NCBI GenBank assembly: GCA_017631855.1
Contig: JAGBSP010000004.1
Coordinates: 81 to 64,080 of the forward strand
Origin: Clostridia bacterium
GTDB lineage: Bacteria > Bacillota > Clostridia > Oscillospirales > CAG-272
Length of the DNA stretch: 64,000 nucleotides
Direction of reading: 5' to 3'
Part shown: piece by piece, positions 7,174 to 26,600 of the stretch
Layout: the number at the start of each line of letters is the position of its first letter
Position numbering within the stretch: the stretch's first letter is position 1
Notes under the pieces: generated by a model
What the model saw: the letters and a program-made list of their open reading frames with translations, nothing else
What the model was told of the DNA's origin: nothing
Database searches by the model: none
Made by a program: the position numbers and the translations under genes

Positions 7174-8742
7174 TTATAATAATTCAAATTCGTCAAGATC
7201 TGAAAAGTCTTCGTTAGACGAAAGGATTTCTAGGATCAATTGATTCGGCTCAATCGATTTTTGAAGCTCCAAGCAAATTGCTCCACGGATACTTTCTATC
7301 ATCGACGGACGGTCAACCATAGATTTTGCAAACTCGTTGGGGAATTTCAAACGAATCGTACCATCCTCCGAAATTAACGCCTTAGCGGTCTTTAAAAATC
7401 CAAGAGCAGCGGCGTCACCGGAAGCGGCTCTTTCTGCAATCTCATTCCAACCGCGCAGCACCTTAAAAGTTGGTTCTGAAATCTCGGAAACGCGAAAAGT
7501 TTCTTGTTGTTCGGTTACAATATTTTTCTCAGAAAGATCGATTATCGTGGTTTGCTCAGAAAGCTCCGTGCTTGCTACGGTGCGAAACATTGTCCCCGAA
7601 GCCACAGTGGTTTCCAACTTGGAAATACGGGAAAGAAGCGCATCGGGAGAAGTATCCAAAGAAACGTCGCAAAGCTTTAATAGTGCCATTTCCGCAAGCA
7701 TACGGTTACTAGCCGTTGAATGCTGCATCATATAAAAGGTATCATCCAACACCCGACAATGATACAGTAGGGTTTCCTTGGAAAAAAGATCTGCCGTTTT
7801 CTTTAATCGTTCGGTTTCGGCCTTCGTCAGATCCAAATATTTCTCCGCCATCGCCGTTGCCTTGATTACTAACATATCTCGATAGAAAGAAATCAACTCT
7901 TGCCAAAAGACGGAAATATCCTTAGAGGAGCGAACAATCATATCCACCGTAGAAAAAATGGTATCAAAATTCGAAGATGCAATGGCACGAACCGCTTGCT
8001 CCAAACCATCTCGACCACCCGAGCCAACCGTTTCATTGACTAACTCCGGGGTAATTTTTTGTCTTGCTCCGGCACAAAGCTCCAATAAACTGATCGCGTC
8101 ACGCATACCGCCCTGAGCAAGCTTCGCCAACAGACGAAGCGCCTCAGTGTCGTAATCAATTTTTTCGCAGTCTGAAATATGAGCAAGTCGATCGCTGAGG
8201 ACCTGAGTACTAATACGGCGAAAATCAAAGCGCTGACATCTGGATATAATCGTGGAAGGTAGCTTATGCAGCTCGGTTGTAGCCAAAACGAAAACAACGT
8301 GCGCGGGAGGCTCTTCCAAGGTTTTGAGCAACGCATTAAACGCACTTCCACTCAACATATGAACCTCGTCCACAATATAAACGCGATATTTGAGAGACGA
8401 CGGCATATAAACGACCTCGTCGCGGATATCACGAATATTATCCACACCGTTATTGGAAGCGGCATCCATTTCAAGAACGTCGGTAGCAGTTCCTTCATCG
8501 ATAGAACGGCACGACGTACAACAGTTACAAGGACTTCCGTTTATAGGAGACTCACAGTTGACTGCTTTTGCCAAGATCTTCGCACACGTGGTTTTTCCCG
8601 TTCCACGAGAACCGCAAAAGAGGTAGGCATGGGAAAATTTCCGGTGCTCTGTTTCGTATTTTAAAATTGACGTAATATGCTCTTGACCGCATACCTCATC
8701 AAAGGTTTGCGGACGCCATTTTCGATAAAGAGCCTGATGCAT
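7174..8742 (-). CDS. dnaX: DNA polymerase III subunit gamma/tau
   Basis: Start set at MHQALYRKWRPQTF (ATG 8742) because the longer ORF overlaps the SRP RNA 3' helix. Walker A GSRGTGKTT and zinc module CNCCTSC are present. Confidence 0.93.
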   Translation of the reverse strand: MHQALYRKWRPQTFDEVCGQEHITSILKYETEHRKFSHAYLFCGSRGTGKTTCAKILAKAVNCESPINGSPCNCCTSCRSIDEGTATDVLEMDAASNNGVDNIRDIRDEVVYMPSSLKYRVYIVDEVHMLSGSAFNALLKTLEEPPAHVVFVLATTELHKLPSTIISRCQRFDFRRISTQVLSDRLAHISDCEKIDYDTEALRLLAKLAQGGMRDAISLLELCAGARQKITPELVNETVGSGGRDGLEQAVRAIASSNFDTIFSTVDMIVRSSKDISVFWQELISFYRDMLVIKATAMAEKYLDLTKAETERLKKTADLFSKETLLYHCRVLDDTFYMMQHSTASNRMLAEMALLKLCDVSLDTSPDALLSRISKLETTVASGTMFRTVASTELSEQTTIIDLSEKNIVTEQQETFRVSEISEPTFKVLRGWNEIAERAASGDAAALGFLKTAKALISEDGTIRLKFPNEFAKSMVDRPSMIESIRGAICLELQKSIEPNQLILEILSSNEDFSDLDEFELL

Positions 8743-8777
8743 TCCGAAAAATCCCCCTTCCGTTTTAAAATAAAAAA

Positions 8778-9081
8778 GCAGACTGCAAAAGAAGACCATA
8801 CACCTTAAGATCGAATCTCACCTTTACGCGATCTTCGCTCCTCCTGCTCCAAGCAGGCTGCCTCGCGGCACATCGGGCTTACTGATTAATGCTGCTTGGT
8901 TCCCCACCTGACATGGTTCACAGCGCCCAATTGCGCAAGACCCGCTCTTCAACGCAGCAGGACACGACTCAGACCGTATCGGATCAACCCTCAAAAAAGG
9001 AATGAACCCCTGCTGTAGCGGATTTCAGGTTCAGGGCACCGCTAATTCCCCGGCTGGTATGGCCTTATTTCGCAGTCTGCG
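8778..9081 (-). ncRNA. ffs: signal recognition particle RNA, large Bacillus type (scRNA/ffs)
   Basis: The minus strand contains TTAGCGGTGCCCTGAACCTGAAATCCGCTACAGCAGGGG (Alu-domain region). It also contains GAACCATGTCAGGTGGGGAACCAAGCAGCATTAATCAG...ATGTGCCGC (domain IV). These match the B. subtilis scRNA pattern from memory. A 9-bp closing helix (GCAGACUGC/GCAGUCUGC) is followed by a U-run. Its position upstream of dnaX is conserved. Ends are approximate. Confidence 0.8.
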
Positions 9082-9106
9082 TTTCCCATAGGAAACTTAC
9101 TTATAT

Positions 9107-9135
9107 AGTATAACAGATTTTTCTGTTTTTTTCAA
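9107..9135 (-). promoter_or_regulatory. sigma-A-type promoter for SRP RNA
   Basis: Minus strand: TTGAAA (9135-9130), 17-nt spacer, TATACT (9112-9107). Confidence 0.5.
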
Positions 9136-9159
9136 TAGGATTTTGAAATTTTTATAGAA

Positions 9160-9206
9160 AAGAAGACAAAAGAAATTATGGAGATCGAGCTCTGCCCGAT
9201 CTCCAT
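9160..9206 (-). terminator. rho-independent terminator after the N/Q-tail ORF
   Basis: Perfect 10-bp inverted repeat atggagatcg/cgatctccat (9178-9187 and 9197-9206), followed on the minus strand by a T-rich run. Confidence 0.6.
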
Positions 9207-9228
9207 AATTTCTAAACCATTCCCATTT

Positions 9229-9564
9229 TTAGCGAGCGTTGTTCTGCTTGTTCTGAGAATTGTTCTGATTCTGATTGTTCTGCTTGTTCTGATTCTGATT
9301 GTTTTGATTCTGATTGTTTTGATTCTGATTGTTCTGATTGTTCTGATTCTTGTTGTTTTGATTATTCTGAGAGTTGTTTTGGTTCTGATTGTTGTACTGC
9401 ATCTTCAGCTCCGTTTCTCCGTCGACAGAAAAATAAGAATAACAGTCGTAGGTCGACGGAACAGGACTGTTAAAGCACATCACACGTAACGTCGTAACGT
9501 CCGTGGGAAGTACGACGTTAGTATGTGCCACAACCCTTGGCAATATACAGTTTTCTAAAAACAA
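9229..9564 (-). CDS. hypothetical small protein with a C-terminal Asn/Gln-only tract
   Basis: This is the ORF envelope. Possible starts are TTG 9564 (3 nt after the upstream stop), ATG 9480, or ATG 9402 (GGAG 6 nt upstream). It is co-directional with the upstream genes and followed by a terminator. The start, and even coding status, are uncertain. Confidence 0.45.
   Translation of the reverse strand: MFLENCILPRVVAHTNVVLPTDVTTLRVMCFNSPVPSTYDCYSYFSVDGETELKMQYNNQNQNNSQNNQNNKNQNNQNNQNQNNQNQNNQNQNKQNNQNQNNSQNKQNNAR
9238..9393. repeat. imperfect tandem repeat, unit about 15 nt (gattctgattgtt[c/t]t), in frame
   Basis: Direct reading of 9238-9393. It encodes the N/Q tract on the minus strand and an L/I/V tract on the plus strand. 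Confidence 0.8.
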
Positions 9565-9567
9565 AGT

Positions 9568-11001
9568 TTATTCCAACATATATTTTTCTTCAATTGCCGA
9601 TAAAACCAAAGACATCGCACGAATGAACAATCCTATACAAAAGGCAAGAAGCACAATATTGATCGTTTTCAACCAACCATAATGGTTCTGAATATTACTA
9701 AACGTGCCAAAGATTGCCTCGCCATCGACATAAAGTCCACTAAGCATTGGAGCAAAAATGTCATAACATATATCCGATATGCCATAGAGGACGGCAGAAA
9801 TCATAGCAAAAAAGACCGGTCGACGAAGCTCCTTATGTAGCTCTTTTTCCATAGATATGATTCGCTCGTCAATACGCTCTCTCCCAATCTCTGTTCCCGT
9901 ATGTGTTTTGATTGTTTGACACAATGCTCGGGTGACCAAATACACCACCCACAAAAACGAAAGAACCTTCAATAGATTACAAACCACGTAAGCGCTATAC
10001 AGAAGCATCGCCGTATCGTTTTTCACGATAGCGGTAAAGGAATAATTTATAAAAAACCTTTGTTCAAGCAAAAAAGATACAACAGAGGTCATCAAATAAA
10101 ATCCTGATGCTATCATCCACGGTGCTTTGGTGATAACAATGTTACGCGACAACGTAAGAAAAATAAACACCACAGCAATTGCTGAAAAAATATCAGGAAA
10201 TATTGTTACTCCATCCAAACGATAATCCATACTGAAAATCAACGCAAGGATCAAAAAAAGATACGAGAGCTTAAATCTTCTTTGGATAAATCTTCCAATC
10301 TTCGGCTGAACGTTAGTTTTGTAGGCACCGGATAACGAGGCGATTAGTGTTTTATCGTGACGAAAATGATAAAAATAGCGTTGCATACGGAAAAGCCAAA
10401 CAATTCCAAAAATCAAAACGACAAGAATGGCAAACCCACGCATCAATCCGATGTATCGATAAATATTGACAAATCCGCTATCTTCCTGATAGGAGGTATT
10501 CGAGAGATCGGCAAACTCGGGAAGCACCGTAAAAATCGATTTGATACAAATAAAGACAATGGTTACCTTCTTGATTCGATCGGTAGCACTTTTTCCTTTT
10601 TTCATAGTACCGAGAATAGAGGTGTTGGGATAGAAATAACCCAATTTTGAAATGCCATCAAAAAGCTTTGTGTAAGTTGGAAGCAAAAAAATCAACTCTA
10701 AGGTGGTAAAGACAAACGTCCAAAGCAATACCGAAGAGTTCTTTTCTCCCGTCACAGACATCGTAAACGTGATGAAGATGGCAAGCCATTTGGCGGCATC
10801 GACCCAAATCATTTTTCGAAAAATCGAAACCGCACTCTCAATTTCTTCATTTAAATCTACCAATTTAGAAAACGCCAGACAAAGGAAAATATATCCGACA
10901 AAATCAGGAAGAGGATCGATCAAATGTAGGGTCGGATTGAATAAAAAACATAACGCGAAAATAATCCAGGAAAGTCCCAAAAAATCTTTTGTTTGTTTCA
11001 T
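9568..11001 (-). CDS. hypothetical multipass membrane protein (477 aa)
   Basis: Many hydrophobic segments. The start overlaps the upstream stop (ATGA at 10998-11001). No family recognised. Confidence 0.8.
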   Translation of the reverse strand: MKQTKDFLGLSWIIFALCFLFNPTLHLIDPLPDFVGYIFLCLAFSKLVDLNEEIESAVSIFRKMIWVDAAKWLAIFITFTMSVTGEKNSSVLLWTFVFTTLELIFLLPTYTKLFDGISKLGYFYPNTSILGTMKKGKSATDRIKKVTIVFICIKSIFTVLPEFADLSNTSYQEDSGFVNIYRYIGLMRGFAILVVLIFGIVWLFRMQRYFYHFRHDKTLIASLSGAYKTNVQPKIGRFIQRRFKLSYLFLILALIFSMDYRLDGVTIFPDIFSAIAVVFIFLTLSRNIVITKAPWMIASGFYLMTSVVSFLLEQRFFINYSFTAIVKNDTAMLLYSAYVVCNLLKVLSFLWVVYLVTRALCQTIKTHTGTEIGRERIDERIISMEKELHKELRRPVFFAMISAVLYGISDICYDIFAPMLSGLYVDGEAIFGTFSNIQNHYGWLKTINIVLLAFCIGLFIRAMSLVLSAIEEKYMLE

Positions 11002-11666
11002 CTTTTTTTCCTTTCTTTCCTTTTATTAAGCTTTTCTTTTCGGTATGCTTCGGTTTCAGCTCTTGCTTTTTCTTCTCTGCGGTCAAATTCCTCACGAAAA
11101 TGATTTACCCACGCAAAGCGAGAGGGTTTTCTTGCCATTTCCGCGTCTTTTTCATCACAAATGTTCGCGTAGCATTGACCAAACAGAATCATATTTAAGA
11201 GTATACACGAGAAATACAAAATCAAGGAAATAATTCGCAGTTCTCCGCGCACTCTCTCAATCACGTCAAACGGAAGATATTCTAAAACACAAACAATGTA
11301 GTAAAAAGAAATGAAAATAAAATTCCGTATTGATGCATCCGCAAGCTTTTTCACGCCTGTTTCTCTCGAAATTTTCAAAATCGCGTACAGAAGTAAAGAG
11401 AGAAATACAAAAGAAAATCCCTGCTCTATATAGCCGATGATATCCTTATAGATTCCCGCAATATCGGTGTAAACAAATGCTCCCGAAACAAAAAGCATCC
11501 CAAGCGTTGTAAAGACAGAAAATTGAAACGCCCGATGATATTTTTGAAGCTTTAAGAGTGCCACGAAGATAATTCCGTATCCTAGAATTCGAAAAACGGA
11601 ACCGAGAGGATTTAACGTCATAAAATTTGCGACGAAATACCCGATAAAAAGTAATCCGAAGCCCAT
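10998..11666 (-). CDS. hypothetical multipass membrane protein (222 aa) with a K/R/E-rich tail
   Basis: Start moved to ATG 11666, which has an AGGAG RBS. The longer ORF overlaps the secA 3' end. The N-terminus resembles that of the 477-aa neighbour. Confidence 0.75.
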   Translation of the reverse strand: MGFGLLFIGYFVANFMTLNPLGSVFRILGYGIIFVALLKLQKYHRAFQFSVFTTLGMLFVSGAFVYTDIAGIYKDIIGYIEQGFSFVFLSLLLYAILKISRETGVKKLADASIRNFIFISFYYIVCVLEYLPFDVIERVRGELRIISLILYFSCILLNMILFGQCYANICDEKDAEMARKPSRFAWVNHFREEFDRREEKARAETEAYRKEKLNKRKERKKR

Positions 11667-11684
11667 ATTCTTACTCCTTTTTTG

Positions 11685-11715
11685 AGCGACACGATCCAAG
11701 ATGGATCGTGTCGCT
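11685..11715 (-). other. GC-rich 13-bp hairpin between secA and the membrane-protein cassette, with no U-tract
   Basis: agcgacacgatcc/ggatcgtgtcgct with a 5-nt loop. On the minus strand it is followed by CAAAAAAGGAG (the RBS), not a U-run. Confidence 0.5.
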
Positions 11716-11722
11716 ATCCAAT

Positions 11723-14479
11723 TTATTGCTGATTGTTCGCGGGAGCACCGCAACACTTTTTGTATTTTTTACCCGAGCCGCAAGGACAAAGATCATTTCT
11801 CCCCGTGGATTCCTCAGCACGGCGAACAACACTTACCTTTTTCGGCTTTTTCTGTTCGCTTCCTTCAAAGCCTTCCATGAGGGGTTTTGCCAACTGAACG
11901 CGCTTCATTTCAGGCGTATGAACGGTGACCGATAGAATCATACGAACCGTACGGTCACGAATGTCACTAACCATAGCATCAAACATATCCGCTCCCTGAA
12001 TACGGTATTCGTTGACAGGATCGCGCTGTGCATAGGACTGCAGGCGAATGCTGTCCTTGAGATCCTCCATCGCATCGATGTGATCCATCCAATTTCGGTC
12101 TACATTCTGCAAAAGCACCGAGCGCTCCAGCTCGCGGAAGCGTTCCTCTCCGACAAGCGCCTCTTTTTCGTGATACAGCGCCAGCGCACGGTCGCAAAGC
12201 TCCTCACAGATCGCGTCGCGCTTCACCTTCTTGAGCTCGTTTTCTTCATACTGGAAGTCCTCGGGCGTGGTCAAAATTCCCTTGTACGCTTCGCGAAGTC
12301 CCGTGAAATCCCAAAGCTCAGCTTCATCTCCGTGGAGATAGGTGTCTACGTTTTCACGAACGGTCGCCAAAATCATCTTTTGAACGGTATTGGTGATATC
12401 TTCACCGCGAAGAACGTCGTTTCTCTGCTTGTAAATGACGTTTCTCTGCTGATTCATTACGTCATCATAGGTAAGGACGTGCTTTCTGCGCTTGAAGTTC
12501 TGATCCTCAATTCTCTTTTGAGCGCCCTCAATTCGATTGGAAAGAATCTTAGCATCGATCGGCATATCGTCGGGAAGTCCCAAACGGTCAACGACTCCCA
12601 TCAAGTGCTCCGAACCAAACAAACGCATCAGATCGTCTTGCAACGAAAGATAAAATTTCGACTCACCGGGGTCGCCCTGACGTCCCGAACGACCGCGCAG
12701 CTGGTTATCAATTCGTCGGCTTTCGTGGCGCTCGGTACCGAGAATATACAAGCCGCCCGCTTCGCGAACCTGTTCTGCCTCGGGAGCGATTTCTTGCTTG
12801 AATTTCTCATACAGCTCTCGGAAAATCTTTCTGGCGTTCTGAATCTCTTCGTCGTCAATCTCCGCCGTACCCGTTGCCATTGCGATCAGATCGTCGTCAA
12901 TCTCCATTTTGCGCATTTCTTTTTTCGCCATATATTCGGCGTTACCGCCAAGCATAATGTCGGTTCCGCGTCCAGCCATATTGGTAGAGATCGTAACTGC
13001 GCCAAGCTTACCTGCCTGAGCCACGATTTCAGCCTCTCGGTCGTGGTATTTTGCATTCAGAACGGTATGCGCAATCCCATGCCGCTTGAGTCTGCGAGAA
13101 AGCTCCTCGGACTTATCGATCGAAACTGTACCGACAAGCACAGGCTGTCCTTTTTCGTGACATTTTATAATCTGCTGAATCACGGCATCGTATTTTCCTT
13201 CTACCGTCTTATACACGGCATCCGAATGATCACGACGAATCATCGGACGGTTCGTCGGAATTTCAATCACGTCAAGTCCGTAAATTTCACGGAATTCAAG
13301 ATCCTCGGTCAGCGCCGTACCCGTCATACCCGAAAGCTTCGAATACATTCTGAAATAGTTCTGGAAGGTAATCGTTGCCAGCGTCTTGTTTTCTTTTTCG
13401 ATACGGACGCCTTCCTTGGCTTCGATGGCTTGATGCAGTCCGTTCGAATAACGTCTGCCGGGCATCAAACGACCGGTAAACGCGTCAACGATCATAACGC
13501 CCTGATCGTTCACTACGTAATCCACGTCGCGCTTCATAATACCGTGTGCGCGAATGGCTTGATTGATATGGTGCGCAATCTCGGAGTTTTCGGGATCGGA
13601 GAGATTGTTAATAGCAAAAAACTCTTCCGCTTTCTTCGCGCCGTTCGGCGTCAGAATCGCGTTGTTTGCCTTTTCGTCTACAATATAGTCGGCATCGATA
13701 TCGTCATAGCTTTCCTTGGAATCCATTTCCTTGATGACGAATTTTCGCATCTTTCTTGCAACCGCATCGGCACGGTCGTACAGATCGGTCGACTTTTCGC
13801 CGGCACCCGAAATGATCAGAGGGGTTCTTGCCTCGTCAATCAAGATCGAGTCCACCTCGTCAACGATGGCAAAATTGTGTCCGCGCTGTACCATATTTTC
13901 CTGATAAACCACCATATTGTCGCGCAGATAATCAAATCCGAATTCGTTGTTGGTTCCGTAGGTAATGTCCGCCGCATAGGACTCTCTCTTTTGCGAGGGA
14001 GTCAAGCCGTGCGCAACAAGTCCCGTGCGAAGTCCCATAAATTCAAATACTCTGCCCATTTCCTCGCTGTCACGGCGCGCAAGGTAGTCGTTTACCGTAA
14101 CAACGTGAACACCTTTTCCCGTCAATGCATTCAAATAGGCGGGCATTGTAGCAACAAGCGTCTTACCTTCACCCGTTTTCATTTCGGCAATTCTGCCCTG
14201 ATGGAGAATGATACCGCCGATGATCTGTACGCGGAACGGACGCTTTCCGAGAATACGGTCGTCTGCCTCACGAATCGCGGCGTACGCATCCGCCATAATA
14301 TCCTCCAAGGTTTCTCCCTCAGCAAGGCGCGCCTTCAAAAGCTCGGTCGTTCCAGAGAGCTCCTCGTTCGACATTGCCGCATACTTCGGCGCCAAGGATT
14401 CAATATAGTCTACGAATTTATCTATTTTCTTTAACTGTCTTTCGCTATACGTACCAAAGAGTTTGTTTCCGAGTCCCAT
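11723..14479 (-). CDS. secA: preprotein translocase ATPase SecA
   Basis: Start at MGLGNKLFG (ATG 14479) with a GGAGG RBS. It has the DEAD-like motor motifs and a C-terminal zinc motif CPCGSGKKYKKCCG. Confidence 0.96.
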   Translation of the reverse strand: MGLGNKLFGTYSERQLKKIDKFVDYIESLAPKYAAMSNEELSGTTELLKARLAEGETLEDIMADAYAAIREADDRILGKRPFRVQIIGGIILHQGRIAEMKTGEGKTLVATMPAYLNALTGKGVHVVTVNDYLARRDSEEMGRVFEFMGLRTGLVAHGLTPSQKRESYAADITYGTNNEFGFDYLRDNMVVYQENMVQRGHNFAIVDEVDSILIDEARTPLIISGAGEKSTDLYDRADAVARKMRKFVIKEMDSKESYDDIDADYIVDEKANNAILTPNGAKKAEEFFAINNLSDPENSEIAHHINQAIRAHGIMKRDVDYVVNDQGVMIVDAFTGRLMPGRRYSNGLHQAIEAKEGVRIEKENKTLATITFQNYFRMYSKLSGMTGTALTEDLEFREIYGLDVIEIPTNRPMIRRDHSDAVYKTVEGKYDAVIQQIIKCHEKGQPVLVGTVSIDKSEELSRRLKRHGIAHTVLNAKYHDREAEIVAQAGKLGAVTISTNMAGRGTDIMLGGNAEYMAKKEMRKMEIDDDLIAMATGTAEIDDEEIQNARKIFRELYEKFKQEIAPEAEQVREAGGLYILGTERHESRRIDNQLRGRSGRQGDPGESKFYLSLQDDLMRLFGSEHLMGVVDRLGLPDDMPIDAKILSNRIEGAQKRIEDQNFKRRKHVLTYDDVMNQQRNVIYKQRNDVLRGEDITNTVQKMILATVRENVDTYLHGDEAELWDFTGLREAYKGILTTPEDFQYEENELKKVKRDAICEELCDRALALYHEKEALVGEERFRELERSVLLQNVDRNWMDHIDAMEDLKDSIRLQSYAQRDPVNEYRIQGADMFDAMVSDIRDRTVRMILSVTVHTPEMKRVQLAKPLMEGFEGSEQKKPKKVSVVRRAEESTGRNDLCPCGSGKKYKKCCGAPANNQQ

Positions 14480-14600
14480 CCTAAGACCTCCAAAAAATAT
14501 ATTCATATTATTATACTACATTTTTGACTTTTTTTCAAGAGGTTTATCGTTGTAGCGCAGGAAATGATTGTAAACTTTTTTCTTTTTCTCGCCAAATCTC

Positions 14601-18405: not shown

Positions 18406-19884
18406 TTAAAGAATAATACAAATTAAGCCGCCGCTACCCTCATTGATGATTCTCTCGAGGGTTTCGGAGAGCTTCGTACGCGATTCCTCGGGCATATGCT
18501 CGAGCTTGGTGTGAAGTCCCTCGTTGACGAGTTCATAAAGGCTCTTACCAAAGACGTTGGATTCCCAGATCTTTTGCGGCTCTTCCTCAAACTCCCTTAA
18601 CATATAGCGAACGAGCTCTTCGGACTGTTGCTCTGTTCCCACGATCGGATTGATCTCGGTTTCGATATTGGCGCGAATGAGGTGAATGGATTGTGCCGAA
18701 GCGCAAAGACGAACGCCATAACCGCCCGACTGTTTTACGATCTGCGGCTCTTCGAGATGAAGCTCCTCAATGCTCGGCATTACGATGCCGTATCCCTTCT
18801 CTTCTGCCATTGCAAGCGCCTCGGAAACACGCTCGTACTGTCCCTTCATCACGGAAAGCTCTTGCAAAAGCTCAATGAGCGCTCGCTCTCCCGTAATTTC
18901 AAATCCGCTTAGCTCACTAAGCACCGAATAATACAACGCGTCGTCAAAAGCGAGACGGAGCTTTGCCTTTCCCGTACCGAGATCAATTTCTTCGATGCGA
19001 ACACCGCACACGTACTCGTTATTTTCAAGATCGCCAAACGCATTTTTCAAGTCGCCTGTTTTATGAATTTTATCTGCGCAAGCGCAAAGAGAGCTTTGCA
19101 ACGAAGCTTTGATCTTGTGATCGGCATCCAGTGCTTCCATCCAAACGGGCAATTCTACAGAAATTTCCGACACGGGAAATTCGTGAAGTACAAGCTCAAG
19201 AATATGACGGATATCTTCTGCATCAAGATCAATACAGCTCACCAACGCCACGGGAACGTCGTACTTTGCCTCCAGCTCATAGGCAAGCGCGATCGCCGCT
19301 TCCGACGAAGGATTTGCAGAATTCAAGACCATTGCAAAGGGTTTTCCAATGCTTTTTAATTCGTTGACGATTCGCTCCTCGGCAGGAACGTAGCTTTCTC
19401 TTGAAATCTCACCGATCGTTCCGTCGGTCGTAATCAGCATACCGATGGTCGAATGCTCCTGAATGACCTTCTCCGTTCCCATTTCTGCGGCTTCAACAAA
19501 GGGCATCGGCTCTTCCTGCCACGGCGTATGTACCATGCGAGCCTGACCGTTTTCAATCGTACCGAGGGCTTCGGAAACGATATATCCGACGCAATCGATC
19601 ATTTTAACGCGCAAGGACGCACAGTCGTCAATTTTGATCGTTACCGCCTCGTCAGGTACAAACTTCGGCTCGGTAGTCATCACCGTTTTTCCTGCGGCAG
19701 ATTGCGGCATTTCATCGCGTGCACGATCTCTGGAATAGTTGTCGTCGATATTCGGCAACACCAAGGACTCCATAAAACGCTTGATAAAGGTCGACTTTCC
19801 CGTACGAACGGGACCAACGACGCCAATATAGATATCACCGCCCGTTCTTTCGGCAATATCTCGGTAAATCGAATGCTCAGCCAT
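18406..19884 (-). CDS. spoIVA: stage IV sporulation protein A (spore coat morphogenetic ATPase)
   Basis: 492 aa. The N-terminus IYIGVVGPVRTGKSTFIKRFME carries Walker A. SpoIVA-typical over its full length. Confidence 0.96.
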   Translation of the reverse strand: MAEHSIYRDIAERTGGDIYIGVVGPVRTGKSTFIKRFMESLVLPNIDDNYSRDRARDEMPQSAAGKTVMTTEPKFVPDEAVTIKIDDCASLRVKMIDCVGYIVSEALGTIENGQARMVHTPWQEEPMPFVEAAEMGTEKVIQEHSTIGMLITTDGTIGEISRESYVPAEERIVNELKSIGKPFAMVLNSANPSSEAAIALAYELEAKYDVPVALVSCIDLDAEDIRHILELVLHEFPVSEISVELPVWMEALDADHKIKASLQSSLCACADKIHKTGDLKNAFGDLENNEYVCGVRIEEIDLGTGKAKLRLAFDDALYYSVLSELSGFEITGERALIELLQELSVMKGQYERVSEALAMAEEKGYGIVMPSIEELHLEEPQIVKQSGGYGVRLCASAQSIHLIRANIETEINPIVGTEQQSEELVRYMLREFEEEPQKIWESNVFGKSLYELVNEGLHTKLEHMPEESRTKLSETLERIINEGSGGLICIIL

Positions 19885-23454: not shown

Positions 23455-24009
23455 TTATTCGGAAAGAATGATCTCTTTGATCGTCATCGTCAAACTCACA
23501 GTTTCCGTATGCACCTCCACAGTCTGTCCAGGTGCCAAATAACGAGTTCCGTTCACCAAAAAACCGCTCTCCTCGGAATAGGATCCTTCGCATAAGATTT
23601 TTCCTTCCACATCTACGCGGGCATCCATCGATTCACTGTTAGGATAGAAAACCTGGACGGTGTTTCCGTTTTGATCCACAAAATATTCGGAAGCAGGGGT
23701 CGGACGCAAGGCATTGAAAGATTCTGCAGAATATCCCATCAACTCTCCCAATTTCTCTCCGTCTTCTGCATAATAAACGACGTCATCAATATCCAGATAG
23801 TTCGTCGTAGATCTTCGGATATTCTGAACCGAAAAGGATACGACATATTCCTTCATATCTTTTTGATTTTTCAAGGTTTCAAATACATTATAACGAAAGT
23901 AAATACCAACGACCGAGGTAATTATCAAAAGAATAATTACGGCGTCTAACACCTTAAATCTCGGGCCTTGTTGGCTCCGTTCTTGCTTTTTTATTCTTTT
24001 TTCTTTCAT
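23455..24009 (-). CDS. N-terminally membrane-anchored envelope protein (DUF4330-like), copy 2
   Basis: 184 aa: basic N-terminus, one TM segment, then a beta-rich domain. It is a paralogue of the adjacent gene. The family name is recalled from memory. Confidence 0.7.
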   Translation of the reverse strand: MKEKRIKKQERSQQGPRFKVLDAVIILLIITSVVGIYFRYNVFETLKNQKDMKEYVVSFSVQNIRRSTTNYLDIDDVVYYAEDGEKLGELMGYSAESFNALRPTPASEYFVDQNGNTVQVFYPNSESMDARVDVEGKILCEGSYSEESGFLVNGTRYLAPGQTVEVHTETVSLTMTIKEIILSE

Positions 24010-24025
24010 AACCGATTACCTCTTT

Positions 24026-24571
24026 TCAGTCAACATCGGTTTCTAAACCGATACAGTATCCTTCAGAAACATAATCCGGGAAACGAAGCGATAGCTTTTC
24101 TCCCACAGCAATTCTCGTTGCATTGACCGAATATCCGCTCTCTTTCAAATAATCTGCTGTCGCGGAAATTGTTACGAGCAAATTGTACTTATTGGGATAT
24201 TCCGAAAGAATACCTTCCCCTTCCATACCGTTTTCCACATATTGAAGCTCAGAGTATTTCGTATTATAGTCTACGGCAACCACCGTTCCCATATTATTTT
24301 TTGATACCGAATTGATTACCAGGTCGTCTTCCTTAATTCTATCGATAAATTCCTGATCCACACCTAAAAACTCTACCGTATATTGAATTTCTTTCGTTTG
24401 ATTGGATGCTAGATTTTTAATCAGAGAAATCGGCGAAAATACCTGAACGAGAATCGCGACAACCAACAAAATGAGTACAACTAAAATCAAATCGATCAAA
24501 TTAAAACGACCGACTCTTTTTTTCTTCTTGGCTTTTCCAAAAGAGGAAGTTCCATTGATTGAATTGTTCAT
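24026..24571 (-). CDS. N-terminally membrane-anchored envelope protein (DUF4330-like), copy 1
   Basis: 181 aa with the same architecture (RFNLIDLILVVLILLVV...). Confidence 0.7.
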   Translation of the reverse strand: MNNSINGTSSFGKAKKKKRVGRFNLIDLILVVLILLVVAILVQVFSPISLIKNLASNQTKEIQYTVEFLGVDQEFIDRIKEDDLVINSVSKNNMGTVVAVDYNTKYSELQYVENGMEGEGILSEYPNKYNLLVTISATADYLKESGYSVNATRIAVGEKLSLRFPDYVSEGYCIGLETDVD

Positions 24572-24599: not shown

Positions 24600-26600
24600 T
24601 CAAAAATCAAGATCCATTGCTGCACTGTTTTCTTCATTGACAACAAGATAATTCTTTCTACTTTCCTCTGCACGCCCTACTCGAATACACGCACAAGCGA
24701 GCCCGAGAAGTGCCCAAAAGAGAAAGAAAATTCTGTAGTTATACCAAATAAAATCGAAAAGTCCCATCACTAGTGCGCCAACGATGGAGCACATACAAGC
24801 AATCACAAAAATTTTTGCCCGAACGTTTTGACTCTGCTTTAAATATTCAAAATTCATTTGTGCCGCAAGGAAAAGAATACAGAAGAAGCTCAAAAGACCG
24901 CCGATACCAAGTCCAATAAAAATTTGCAAGAACAAACTATGACTGTGCTCTGCTGCTTCAATTCCGGCATACGCAAATTGAGGATATACGTTTTGATATG
25001 CGGACGTTCCGTAACCAATTCCGCTCATAAAATATTCCTTGATCAAATTCCAAGAGCCTTTCCACGTATAATAGCGGTATGCCGTAGAAGAATCCGCAAG
25101 ATTGCCGATGCTCAAAAATCGTTTTGTAATCGAGTTTGGCAAAAGCATCGACCAAAACGGAATGGTCAACGCGAAAAGGAAAATCGACCGCAGCGTTTTT
25201 TTAGAGTAAATCAACCCAAAGACCAACAGGCAAGTGATGGTTGCAAGCCATGCCCCTCTTGACCAAGTCAAAACAATACATACAAGAACCGCGAACAACG
25301 AAATAAAGTATAATACCTTTTCTCTTCCGCGTTGCGCATATAAAAACATCAACAATACAAACGGAAGAATCAACACCAAATAAGACGCAAGTACGTTGGG
25401 ATTATCAAAGAAAGACACCGCCCGACGCGAAATATCGGAAAAATATTCACGATCGACCCAAGCATTCACTAACACCGAGGCAAAGAAATATTGAATAATC
25501 CCCCAAATCGCAACGACAGTACCAGAAGAAACAAGAGCCAAGACACAGCGTTTTAACCACAGCTCGGTTCTTATTAAGTTGACTGTTAAGAAATACCCCA
25601 ACATTAGACAGCAGGAGAGCAATACCTCGTTAAGACCTTTTTTTCCGCCCGCTGTAATCGTACCGGAAAAGAAGAGCAATAGGAAGAACAGCAACACAGA
25701 AAGATCGATCAATTCAATGCGCAAAATTCTCTTGCCTCGAATCAGCTTGATAAAGTACGAAATCGCTGTCAGCAATACTACAATGCCTAAAATGGTAGCG
25801 GGAATCTCAAAGAAGGATAAGAAAGGTAAGAAAAATAGGGAAAACAACACTCCGATTTCAGGCGTGTTCAAAATGATGACAACCGAAAAAATCAAAAGAA
25901 GAGCTAGCAAAATGAGCAAGGGATGAACAAAGAGTGTAATCATTCCAAGAATCATTCCAAGGAAAACAAGGATATTGTTTTTTGCTCTGCTTCCCTTTTG
26001 CGGAATTTCAAAGCATTCCTTGCGGTATCCTAAGAATTCAGAGCAAAGCATGTTGGTAATTACACCTGAATCCAATGCTTGTGCCAAGCTATCTTTAGAA
26101 AGAAATGTGGGGAGTGCTATAATACATACCGAAAATCCCGTAATAAAATACCCGATGTCGGATTGAGGCAAGCTTGGAACGACCAAACGGATCAAATAAA
26201 CCAATACGGTATAAACGCCGAAGAAAAAGAGTGATTTTCCGTAAGCTCGTAATGAAACACCAAGCCACGAGCGTGCCATGTTTTTCGTTTTATTCAAAAA
26301 CCAGCTGGTTTCAAAGGCTTTGGAAATATATTGACGAAATTTCCAAAAAAACGCCTTAAACTTTGCACTGATGAAATGATTTCTGAGAAATCCATTCTCA
26401 AAAGCATCCTGTTCTTTGGAATATGCCGTGAAAATTTTGGCAAAGAAACCACTATAAAGAGCGTGATAGATTGCGTTAGAGAATTTATCCAACAAAAACA
26501 AAATCAATCCAAGCGATGCTGTGGATTTTTCGGACTTTCGTTCCGCAGAATCAATTCCCGCATCCGCTGTATGAATTTTATTTTTCTTCAATCCAATCAC
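24600..26600 (-). CDS. O-antigen ligase (Wzy_C) family membrane protein
   Basis: 666 aa, polytopic, with the characteristic LTWSRGAWL loop motif. The start overlaps the trmD stop by 4 nt. Confidence 0.8.
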   Translation of the reverse strand: MIGLKKNKIHTADAGIDSAERKSEKSTASLGLILFLLDKFSNAIYHALYSGFFAKIFTAYSKEQDAFENGFLRNHFISAKFKAFFWKFRQYISKAFETSWFLNKTKNMARSWLGVSLRAYGKSLFFFGVYTVLVYLIRLVVPSLPQSDIGYFITGFSVCIIALPTFLSKDSLAQALDSGVITNMLCSEFLGYRKECFEIPQKGSRAKNNILVFLGMILGMITLFVHPLLILLALLLIFSVVIILNTPEIGVLFSLFFLPFLSFFEIPATILGIVVLLTAISYFIKLIRGKRILRIELIDLSVLLFFLLLFFSGTITAGGKKGLNEVLLSCCLMLGYFLTVNLIRTELWLKRCVLALVSSGTVVAIWGIIQYFFASVLVNAWVDREYFSDISRRAVSFFDNPNVLASYLVLILPFVLLMFLYAQRGREKVLYFISLFAVLVCIVLTWSRGAWLATITCLLVFGLIYSKKTLRSIFLFALTIPFWSMLLPNSITKRFLSIGNLADSSTAYRYYTWKGSWNLIKEYFMSGIGYGTSAYQNVYPQFAYAGIEAAEHSHSLFLQIFIGLGIGGLLSFFCILFLAAQMNFEYLKQSQNVRAKIFVIACMCSIVGALVMGLFDFIWYNYRIFFLFWALLGLACACIRVGRAEESRKNYLVVNEENSAAMDLDF

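Follow-up and report, generated by a model that had tools for sequence, protein, structure and literature searches.

An Asn/Gln-only small gene downstream of secA in uncultured Clostridia, a candidate small spore protein

The gamma-type SASP (small acid-soluble spore protein) is a Gln/Asn-rich, repetitive protein that does not bind DNA, and the site at which it is cut by the protease GPR is EFASE-like. The SASP genes are sigmaG-dependent (PMC3533761). The gamma-type protein is considered to be an amino-acid reservoir (PMC8452069) and is reported to be absent from Clostridia (PMC8452069, PMC3533761), while the GPR site of the alpha/beta-type SASPs is EIA (PMC8452069). A further sporulation-associated protein of low complexity, GerG of Clostridioides difficile, possesses Asn-rich repeats that gel in vitro and whose number differs from strain to strain (PMC5241399). 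Here, we describe a small gene composed almost entirely of Asn and Gln codons that lies downstream of secA on the minus strand of a 64,000-nucleotide stretch of DNA from a Clostridia bacterium (Oscillospirales, CAG-272; assembly GCA_017631855.1, contig JAGBSP010000004.1, positions 81 to 64,080), hereafter the window. An earlier note on this DNA saw no obvious function for the gene. However, a small spore protein is suggested by the class of its promoter and the layout of the gene, and we consider it probable that the product is expressed in the forespore, is disordered, and is functionally like the gamma-type SASP.

Coding evidence and start codon

The open reading frame (ORF) on which the earlier note was based is present on the minus strand at 9564..9229, encodes 111 residues when read from a TTG, and ends at its C-terminus in the almost pure Asn/Gln tail that had been reported. 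A six-frame scan found it to be the single ORF in the 64 kb with at least 70% Asn plus Gln per 20-residue segment. The coding sequence proper (9229..9402, minus strand) is predicted to begin at the ATG at 9402 and to comprise 57 codons followed by TAA (MQYNNQNQNNSQNNQNNKNQNNQNNQNQNNQNQNNQNQNKQNNQNQNNSQNKQNNAR). The product contains 30 Asn and 18 Gln (84%), 3 Lys and 2 Ser, with Met, Tyr, Ala and Arg once each, and NQNNQNNQNQNNQNQNNQNQNK is an example of its peptides. When the whole sequence is read, both Glu and Asp are missing. The calculated mass is 6.8 kDa, with an isoelectric point of 10.5 and a grand average of hydropathy of -3.2.

Similarity searches do not reveal the family. A word-indexed search with the 57-residue peptide returned its own cluster only, and an exhaustive phmmer search against 1.84 billion representatives returned 0 matches, because composition filters defeat both methods. 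Nor did the peptide match any family of Pfam or NCBIfam at E <= 1. For this reason, the distribution of the family is known from synteny alone. The anchor was the neighboring gene for a 477-residue protein (M477), for which 65 homologues were aligned and 80 species-level genome loci fetched. All of these loci belong to metagenome-assembled genomes (MAGs) of uncultured members of the Clostridia, Eubacteriales or Oscillospiraceae, recovered from digesters and from the guts of humans and animals. The loci, about 0.8 Mb in total, were scanned in six frames with a strict threshold of at least 70% Asn plus Gln. An ORF passing this threshold, hereafter the QN gene, was present in 29 of the 80 species loci, always on the strand of M477 and directly downstream of it, with no second occurrence elsewhere in this sequence. 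In 7 more loci, the same slot and strand hold a less strict, hydrophilic version in which N, Q, D, K, T and G are abundant, and an N/Q-type ORF in the opposite orientation relative to the neighbors was never found. Around half of the loci lack this gene, and some have an unrelated small gene instead. Whether homologues follow both membrane genes of the cassette had been raised as a question, and in all 36 species they lie directly after the 477-residue gene.

These loci also bear on the possibility that the tract encodes no protein and is a simple repeat, or else an unstructured RNA rich in A and C, such as a sponge or small RNA, whose open frame is incidental. The repeat composition does hold several frames open, the protein homology searches are empty, and Rfam shows a faint resemblance to the A-rich CrcZ sponge that stays below threshold (14.7 bits, E = 0.69). 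Among all Rfam families searched against 8000..12000, however, only the signal recognition particle (SRP) RNA passes, and neither the tract nor its 5' untranslated region (UTR) belongs to a known RNA family. In 30 of 30 QN genes (29 species plus the window) the tract is preceded by an ATG with a Shine-Dalgarno (SD)-like motif, most of them of the GGAG or AGGA type, and in every species the frame is closed by a stop codon shortly beyond the tract. The strict members begin M-(Q/N/D/E)-N-N and are 34-67 residues long, and the spacing from the M477 stop to the ATG is 75-213 nt. The triplet periodicity is strict. Codon position 2 is A in 90% of the QN codons and position 1 is A or C, whereas position 3 is free and spread over C, G and T. 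Between close relatives, the changes are mostly synonymous (AAC/AAT and CAG/CAA), and the amino acids are kept through them, including the N-terminal MQYNNQNQNNSQNNQN, the C-terminal NNSQNKQNNxR with its TCT serine codons, and the terminal R/K. The codon bias equals or exceeds that of secA, with CAG at 95% versus 84% and AAC at 62% versus 56%. Moreover, the complex N/Q/D/K/T/G relatives are not simple repeats and are nevertheless ORFs. We therefore regard a purely RNA-level origin of the open frame as very improbable.

Translation is thus supported by the conserved ATG and SD motif, the codon-position pattern, the synonymous variation and the secA-like codon preference, and this comparative evidence indicates that the minus-strand tract is a real, conserved protein-coding gene. 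The same comparison settles the strand, for which the earlier note had called for evidence, as minus. The plus strand does contain a mechanical ORF (9178..9489), which would encode a hydrophobic L/I/V-rich peptide of 103 residues, but that this is the real gene is scarcely credible. Such an ORF arises inevitably as the complement of AAY/CAR codons (RTT/YTG), its start falls within the minus-strand terminator, and it has no conserved start signals, whereas the conserved promoter, SD, ATG and terminator are all on the minus strand in all related loci.

Three starts had been proposed, TTG 9564, ATG 9480, and ATG 9402 with GGAG. Only the last is borne out. The true start is read as ATG 9402, and the longer versions of 83-111 residues are rejected as the product, because the upstream frame is not conserved in relatives, in-frame stops are nearby, and only the SD block is kept. 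When the region upstream is translated in frame, this block (..GETELK in the clade of the window) is all that persists, and the rest differs in both frame and content. In several relative loci, in-frame stops occur 5-13 codons before the ATG. The N-terminal portion of about 55 residues that had been thought to look like ordinary protein is instead 5' UTR, conserved at the DNA or RNA level and containing hairpins. In the public database, the record MBO5937942.1 (window 9229-9531, minus strand) describes a 100-residue hypothetical protein that takes in this 5' UTR and begins at a GTG upstream of the predicted transcription start. Its start codon was probably mis-called, making the annotation too long. 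A 95-residue cluster representative has the same start-codon problem.

Promoter, leader and terminator

A -35 element, GTATA (9544..9548, minus strand), lies 20 nt past the stop of the 477-residue gene, and a -10 element, CATACTA (9519..9525, minus strand), lies 18 nt downstream of it. Together, GTATA-N18-CATACTA (9548..9519) fits exactly the B. subtilis sigmaG consensus, GHATR-N17-18-CATXHTA. The background of a strict sigmaG-type regular expression is 0.011 matches per kb per strand. The GNATA of the -35 element is kept in 36 of 37 small-ORF loci, and of the 37 QN or QN-like loci, 36 contain a generalized pattern derived from the QN promoters, GNATA-N17/18-[CAG]ATA[AC]T, at most about 30 nt from the M477 stop. 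The 37th locus, L050, has a version with one mismatch. The pattern also occurs in 6 of the 8 loci where another small ORF fills the slot but in only 1 of the 43 loci without any small ORF. Its 30 matches elsewhere in 1.6 Mb of strand sequence (about 0.8 Mb, both strands) are mostly intragenic and uninformative, and a relaxed form occurs twice in the 64-kb window.

The promoter class was examined with those sporulation promoters of C. difficile that have been mapped experimentally (Saujet et al., 2013; PMC3789822, Tables S6 and S7). The QN pattern matched 6 of 41 sigmaF/G promoters in its strict form and 20 of 41 in its relaxed form, and it matched none of the 70 sigmaE/K promoters in either form. 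Recognition by sigmaA is unlikely because T is absent from position 1 of the -10 element in all 36 matched promoters and in the L050 variant, and because a TTGAAT hexamer would have to be spaced 19 nt away. A sigma-70 scan likewise did not call the QN promoter site. We call the predicted promoter forespore-class, sigmaG-like and possibly sigmaF, because the pattern matches sigmaF/G but no sigmaE/K promoters of C. difficile.

The earlier note had placed the gene as the last ORF of the secA cassette. Its adjacency to M477 indeed holds in every case, but its patchy presence and its own promoter in 36 of 37 loci do not fit a simple terminal cistron. Since the conserved promoter is present with the small ORF and almost never without it, the gene is best read as its own transcription unit, and M477 and the small gene would belong to separate units. 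These observations also bear on another explanation, in which the protein is an accessory subunit or partner of M477 and of the 252-residue membrane protein encoded between secA and M477 (M252), co-expressed with them and serving, for instance, as a cytoplasmic plug, a tether or a chaperone-like tail. The gene directly follows the 477-residue gene on the same strand in all 36 species, including a distant clade whose downstream synteny differs, and no terminator separates M477 from the small gene in the window. However, the small gene has its own conserved promoter that is gained and lost along with the ORF. Roughly 35 of the 80 species keep secA-M252-M477 with an empty slot after M477, and 8 species carry an unrelated ORF there. 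In addition, M252 and secA are tightly coupled, being only about 0-50 nt apart, while the small gene begins after a spacer of 75-213 nt that contains promoter and UTR elements. Such a partnership is therefore considered doubtful.

Transcription from this promoter would start at about 9513-9511, and the predicted transcript has a 5'-proximal hairpin (9488..9519, minus strand; AACGTCGTA / TACGACGTT). In most loci, a hairpin occurs right after the -10 element, formed by unrelated sequences (over 35 loci, z averages -2.0 and is below -1.5 in 23). The 3' block of the 5' UTR (9403..9471, minus strand), which the earlier note had translated as '...SPVPSTYDCYSYFSVDGETELK', is about 70 nt of near-invariant DNA in 8 relatives. 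Within it, AACAGTC (9471..9465) pairs with GACTGTT (9447..9441), and CCGTCGAC (9459..9452) is predicted to pair with GTCGACGG (9426..9419), with covariation among the 8 relatives too scant to prove the predicted structure. The block contains a double GGAG, of which the functional SD is the GGAG at 9412..9409, 6 nt ahead of the ATG. The fold of the whole 5' UTR has a z of -2.4, and in the minimum free energy structure pairing takes up part of the SD. This block may be an element of translational control or mRNA stability.

At the other end of the gene, an intrinsic terminator (9171..9213, minus strand) begins 16 nt past the stop codon. The clean terminator that had been described at 9178-9206 is real, although it is larger than that, with a stem of 20 pairs at 9213..9171 ahead of a T-run. 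In many relatives, too, terminator-like hairpins occur downstream of the ORF. The combination of a 5'-terminal hairpin, a strong SD and a tight terminator is what would be expected of a stable, highly expressed, monocistronic ssp-like mRNA. Taken together, the promoter, structured 5' UTR, SD, ORF and terminator indicate that the conserved 57-codon gene is a monocistronic small gene.

Repeat array and genomic surroundings

Within the coding sequence, an imperfect in-frame tandem-repeat array (9239..9393, minus strand) is built mainly of NQNQN-type units with a dominant period of 15 nt. Tandem Repeats Finder reported overlapping arrays over this interval, in which period 15 has 5.8 copies, 80% matches and a score of 106. 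Further periods of 6, 9, 24 and 39 were also reported, and every period is divisible by 3. The array is therefore imperfect, with no clean 15-mer. Thus, the 15-nt repeats that had been described are in frame, imperfect and dominant, but they are not a single repeating unit.

Slippage had been predicted to change the tract length without breaking the frame. A second assembly (ENA ERZ28018852) has 99.85% identity to the window across 12.3 kb, with 3 mismatches, and the two tracts differ by exactly one 15-nt unit, NQNQN. The length variants are 52 and 57 residues from the ATG, or 95 and 100 residues as annotated, and each of them occurs on two contigs. This difference of one unit between near-identical strains therefore shows the predicted in-frame slippage in one strain pair. 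A scan of metagenome DNA with the conserved SD/start block gave no further tract-length alleles. Its sole match (CGGAGAAACGGAGCTTAAGATGCA; L082:2501-2524, minus strand) lies upstream of rpoA on an unrelated contig, so the GGAGAAACGGAG double-SD context is not unique to the small gene. A phase-variable on/off contingency locus was also considered and rejected, since the periods are all multiples of 3 and the 15-nt indel is in frame. Frame-breaking indels or stops in related genomes had been named as evidence that would count against a coding tract. No frame-broken copy was found in the 36 species. One copy (L011:6453-6575) has a premature stop, a CAG-to-TAG change inside the tract that cuts off the last 10 codons, and comparison with the sister locus L009 reveals that its N/Q frame runs 10 codons past the new stop. 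Either truncation of the tail is tolerated or the change is very recent.

The length polymorphism also enters into a reading in which the product is a sporulation or stationary-phase material protein that self-assembles as a prion-like amyloid or gel, possibly in another compartment such as the mother-cell coat or a GerG-like gel, with repeat length tuning assembly. Its 84% Asn plus Gln over 57 residues is richer than GerG, which is about 30% Asn, and the strain-variable, gel-forming Asn-rich repeats of GerG (PMC5241399) have a parallel in the 15-nt difference between near-identical strains. The mother-cell form of this reading is at odds with the promoter, whose pattern matches none of the 70 sigmaE/K promoters, while GerG is listed among the sigmaE promoters. 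Regular interruptions by K and S, and by D, E and R in some relatives, would lower the propensity to form amyloid, and neither the length nor the register is kept across species. We regard self-assembly as unlikely but as a serious variant. It overlaps with the small-spore-protein explanation and differs from it in mechanism only.

On the minus strand, the gene order is secA (14506..11723), M252, M477, the small ORF with its terminator, a promoter, SRP RNA, dnaX, ybaB and recR. M477 (9568..11001, minus strand) is a polytopic membrane protein encoded in the conserved secA-M252-M477 block, which is kept in essentially all of the 80 loci that reach far enough upstream. Neither M252 nor M477 belongs to a Pfam or NCBIfam family. 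The AlphaFold2 model of M477 is confident and all-helical, with a mean predicted local distance difference test score (pLDDT) of 81.7, and a Foldseek search of the PDB with this model gave no fold match at E <= 0.001. A PDB profile search with M477 gave only spurious matches to designer pentatricopeptide repeat (PPR) proteins, with no significant stretch. M252 and M477 may form a conserved SecA-linked membrane pair. Both membrane genes and the small gene (window 9000-11800) have a G+C content of 0.35-0.41, compared with 0.45-0.54 for the flanking secA and dnaX.

Downstream, a sigma-70-like promoter (9107..9135, minus strand) starts an independent unit that begins with the large SRP RNA (8796..9062, minus strand; RF01854, 153.8 bits). 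The synteny on this side, with SRP RNA and dnaX, is limited to the nearer clade. An Asn/Gln-sensing leader peptide or attenuator was rejected, because the terminator is followed by this independent promoter and the SRP RNA, leaving no downstream target, and because the downstream genes differ by clade although the ORF is retained.

Eight relatives without the QN gene carry in its place, after the 477-residue gene and before SRP RNA where downstream sequence exists, an unrelated but conserved small ORF of 63-84 residues (L015:6544-6744, L022:6553-6744, L033:6622-6813, L013:6545-6769, L028:6464-6718, L048:6504-6722, L031:6531-6725 and L019:5170-5367). These ORFs share the motif ..C(D/E)NIF..QPYLDST..GKWG.G.DD.P...Y..NNPLPY, and the same forespore-type promoter precedes 6 of the 8, about 19 nt past the stop of the 477-residue gene. 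A TTCCGTC motif is common to the QN 5' UTRs and most of the 5' UTRs of these alternative ORFs. The alternative protein, with its PYLDST signature, matched neither Pfam nor NCBIfam, and a homologue search gave just 2 database relatives, both without names. Given that the promoter pattern also precedes these alternative ORFs and that the presence of small genes is patchy, the promoter and small ORF appear to be a separable module after M477.

The window also encodes the core sporulation protein SpoIVA at full length (18406..19884, minus strand), with SpoIVA ATPase, middle and C-terminal domains matched at E = 3e-113, 1e-62 and 9e-36, respectively. The lineage therefore has the core sporulation machinery and is endospore-forming. 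The region upstream of spoIVA has a CATATATT-type -10 element that is typical of mother-cell promoters and unlike that of the QN promoter. A few kb from spoIVA, a tandem DUF4330 pair lies beside a 666-residue Wzy_C (O-antigen ligase-like) membrane protein (window 23455-24571 and 24600-26600, both on the minus strand).

Proposed function and comparison with known systems

If the promoter has been classified correctly, the gene would be turned on inside the developing spore by a sigmaG-like, possibly also sigmaF, promoter, as with the ssp genes. The product would then be a 6.8-kDa, uncharged-polar and intrinsically disordered Asn/Gln peptide that builds up in the core of the spore and represents a small spore protein of a new kind. 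The assignment to this class is based on the small size, extreme hydrophilicity, monocistronic structure and forespore-type promoter taken together. The most likely role would be that of the gamma-type SASP (SspE), a dispensable reserve of amide amino acids and nitrogen that is selected for composition and set free by proteolysis at germination. The peptide may additionally form a hydrophilic gel or glass in the dehydrated core. If only composition is selected, slippage in the in-frame repeats could change the length freely. The patchy presence, replacement and loss of the gene and the length range of 34-67 residues fit such a dispensable, composition-selected protein. A more specific proposal, which is possible but tentative, is that the family represents a new class of forespore-specific microprotein of nearly pure poly(Asn/Gln), a polyamide reserve or glass of the core and a functional counterpart of the gamma-type SASP, in which slippage would tune spore dormancy or outgrowth from one strain to another.

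Several points weigh against a role as a small spore protein. Pure N/Q peptides are prone to aggregation, which is not obviously compatible with a rapidly mobilized store. The QN protein has no homology to SspE or to any SASP family in Pfam. Lacking Glu, it has no GPR-type cleavage motif, and its release at germination would presumably need another protease. The promoter class was set by the patterns of C. difficile and B. subtilis, which may differ from the regulon of the host lineage. When a bona fide forespore gene was sought in the window as an internal control, only the mother-cell gene spoIVA was found, and tblastn with alpha/beta SASP sequences gave no match. As there is no terminator between the 477-residue gene and the small gene, the latter could also be expressed vegetatively by transcripts reading through from the secA operon, and the adjacency to the membrane genes over deep divergence could reflect a functional link. 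Finally, the organisms are uncultured MAGs, so that forespore expression, localization in the spore and a storage or protective role are inferred from sequence.

If the proposal is correct, the QN genes would constitute a new family of small spore proteins that is invisible to homology searches and would give the Clostridia, which have no known SASP of the storage type, a candidate for one. Here, a whole bacterial protein made of two amide residues is still under selection across species whose flanking proteins are 25-30% identical. For annotation, the case is instructive because low-complexity filters returned no homologues for the gene despite its conservation, and its start codon was wrongly placed by gene callers. 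The promoter, UTR and ORF also make up a simple, portable cassette that could serve as material for studies of forespore expression and of the physical state of the spore core. Full-text literature searched for spore, SASP and prion-like terms contained no description of a small spore protein consisting only of N and Q.

Among the known systems, the Q/N prion-like domains of C. botulinum Rho and of Sup35 and Ure2 (PMC4703818, PMC4606120) share the Q/N-dominated, disordered composition of the QN protein, in which 48 of 57 residues are N or Q, a long biased Q/N region of the kind by which prion-like domains are defined. While those domains are appended to a functional protein, the QN tract is the whole protein. 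GerG (CD0311) of C. difficile (PMC5241399) resembles it as a sporulation-associated, low-complexity protein with an Asn-rich repeat, a strain-variable repeat count and a predicted prion-like composition. However, GerG is larger, with a predicted prion-like domain that alone spans residues 43-270, it has functional regions outside the repeats, and its approximately 30% Asn is accompanied by Met and Pro. Furthermore, GerG is sigmaE-dependent and thus expressed in the mother cell, in contrast to the forespore-type promoter of the QN gene.

The minor SASPs of Bacillus (SspH-SspP and Tlp), which are sigmaG-dependent, agree with the QN protein in size class, hydrophilicity, possession of their own forespore promoter and terminator, and patchy distribution (PMC3533761). 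The QN protein is not homologous to them, and its extreme two-residue composition and repeat-driven length variation set it apart. The alpha/beta-type SASPs (SspA/SspB) are likewise small, forespore-expressed and sigmaG-dependent, a property that the QN gene would share by promoter sequence, and the mapped C. difficile sspA and sspB promoters (TGAAT..AATAAT, TGTATA..) resemble the QN promoter. These proteins are helical, bind DNA through a conserved helix-turn-helix core and possess the conserved EIA GPR site, whereas the QN protein has neither this motif nor a Pfam SASP match.

The closest parallel appears to be SspE, the gamma-type SASP of the Bacillales, which is considered a store of amino acids used in outgrowth (PMC8452069, PMC3533761). 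The QN protein differs in having no Pfam SASP_gamma match, in containing 84% Asn plus Gln rather than roughly a third, in lacking Glu and hence any GPR-type site, and in being shorter, at 34-67 residues. It also occurs in Clostridia, where the gamma-type SASP is reported to be absent, and its place in the spore is presumed from the promoter class and gene architecture. Nevertheless, both are small and monocistronic with a sigmaG-type promoter, which in the QN gene is recognized at the sequence level, and both are very hydrophilic, Q/N-rich and internally repetitive without an obvious fold. Both also appear to be dispensable and evolutionarily very variable.

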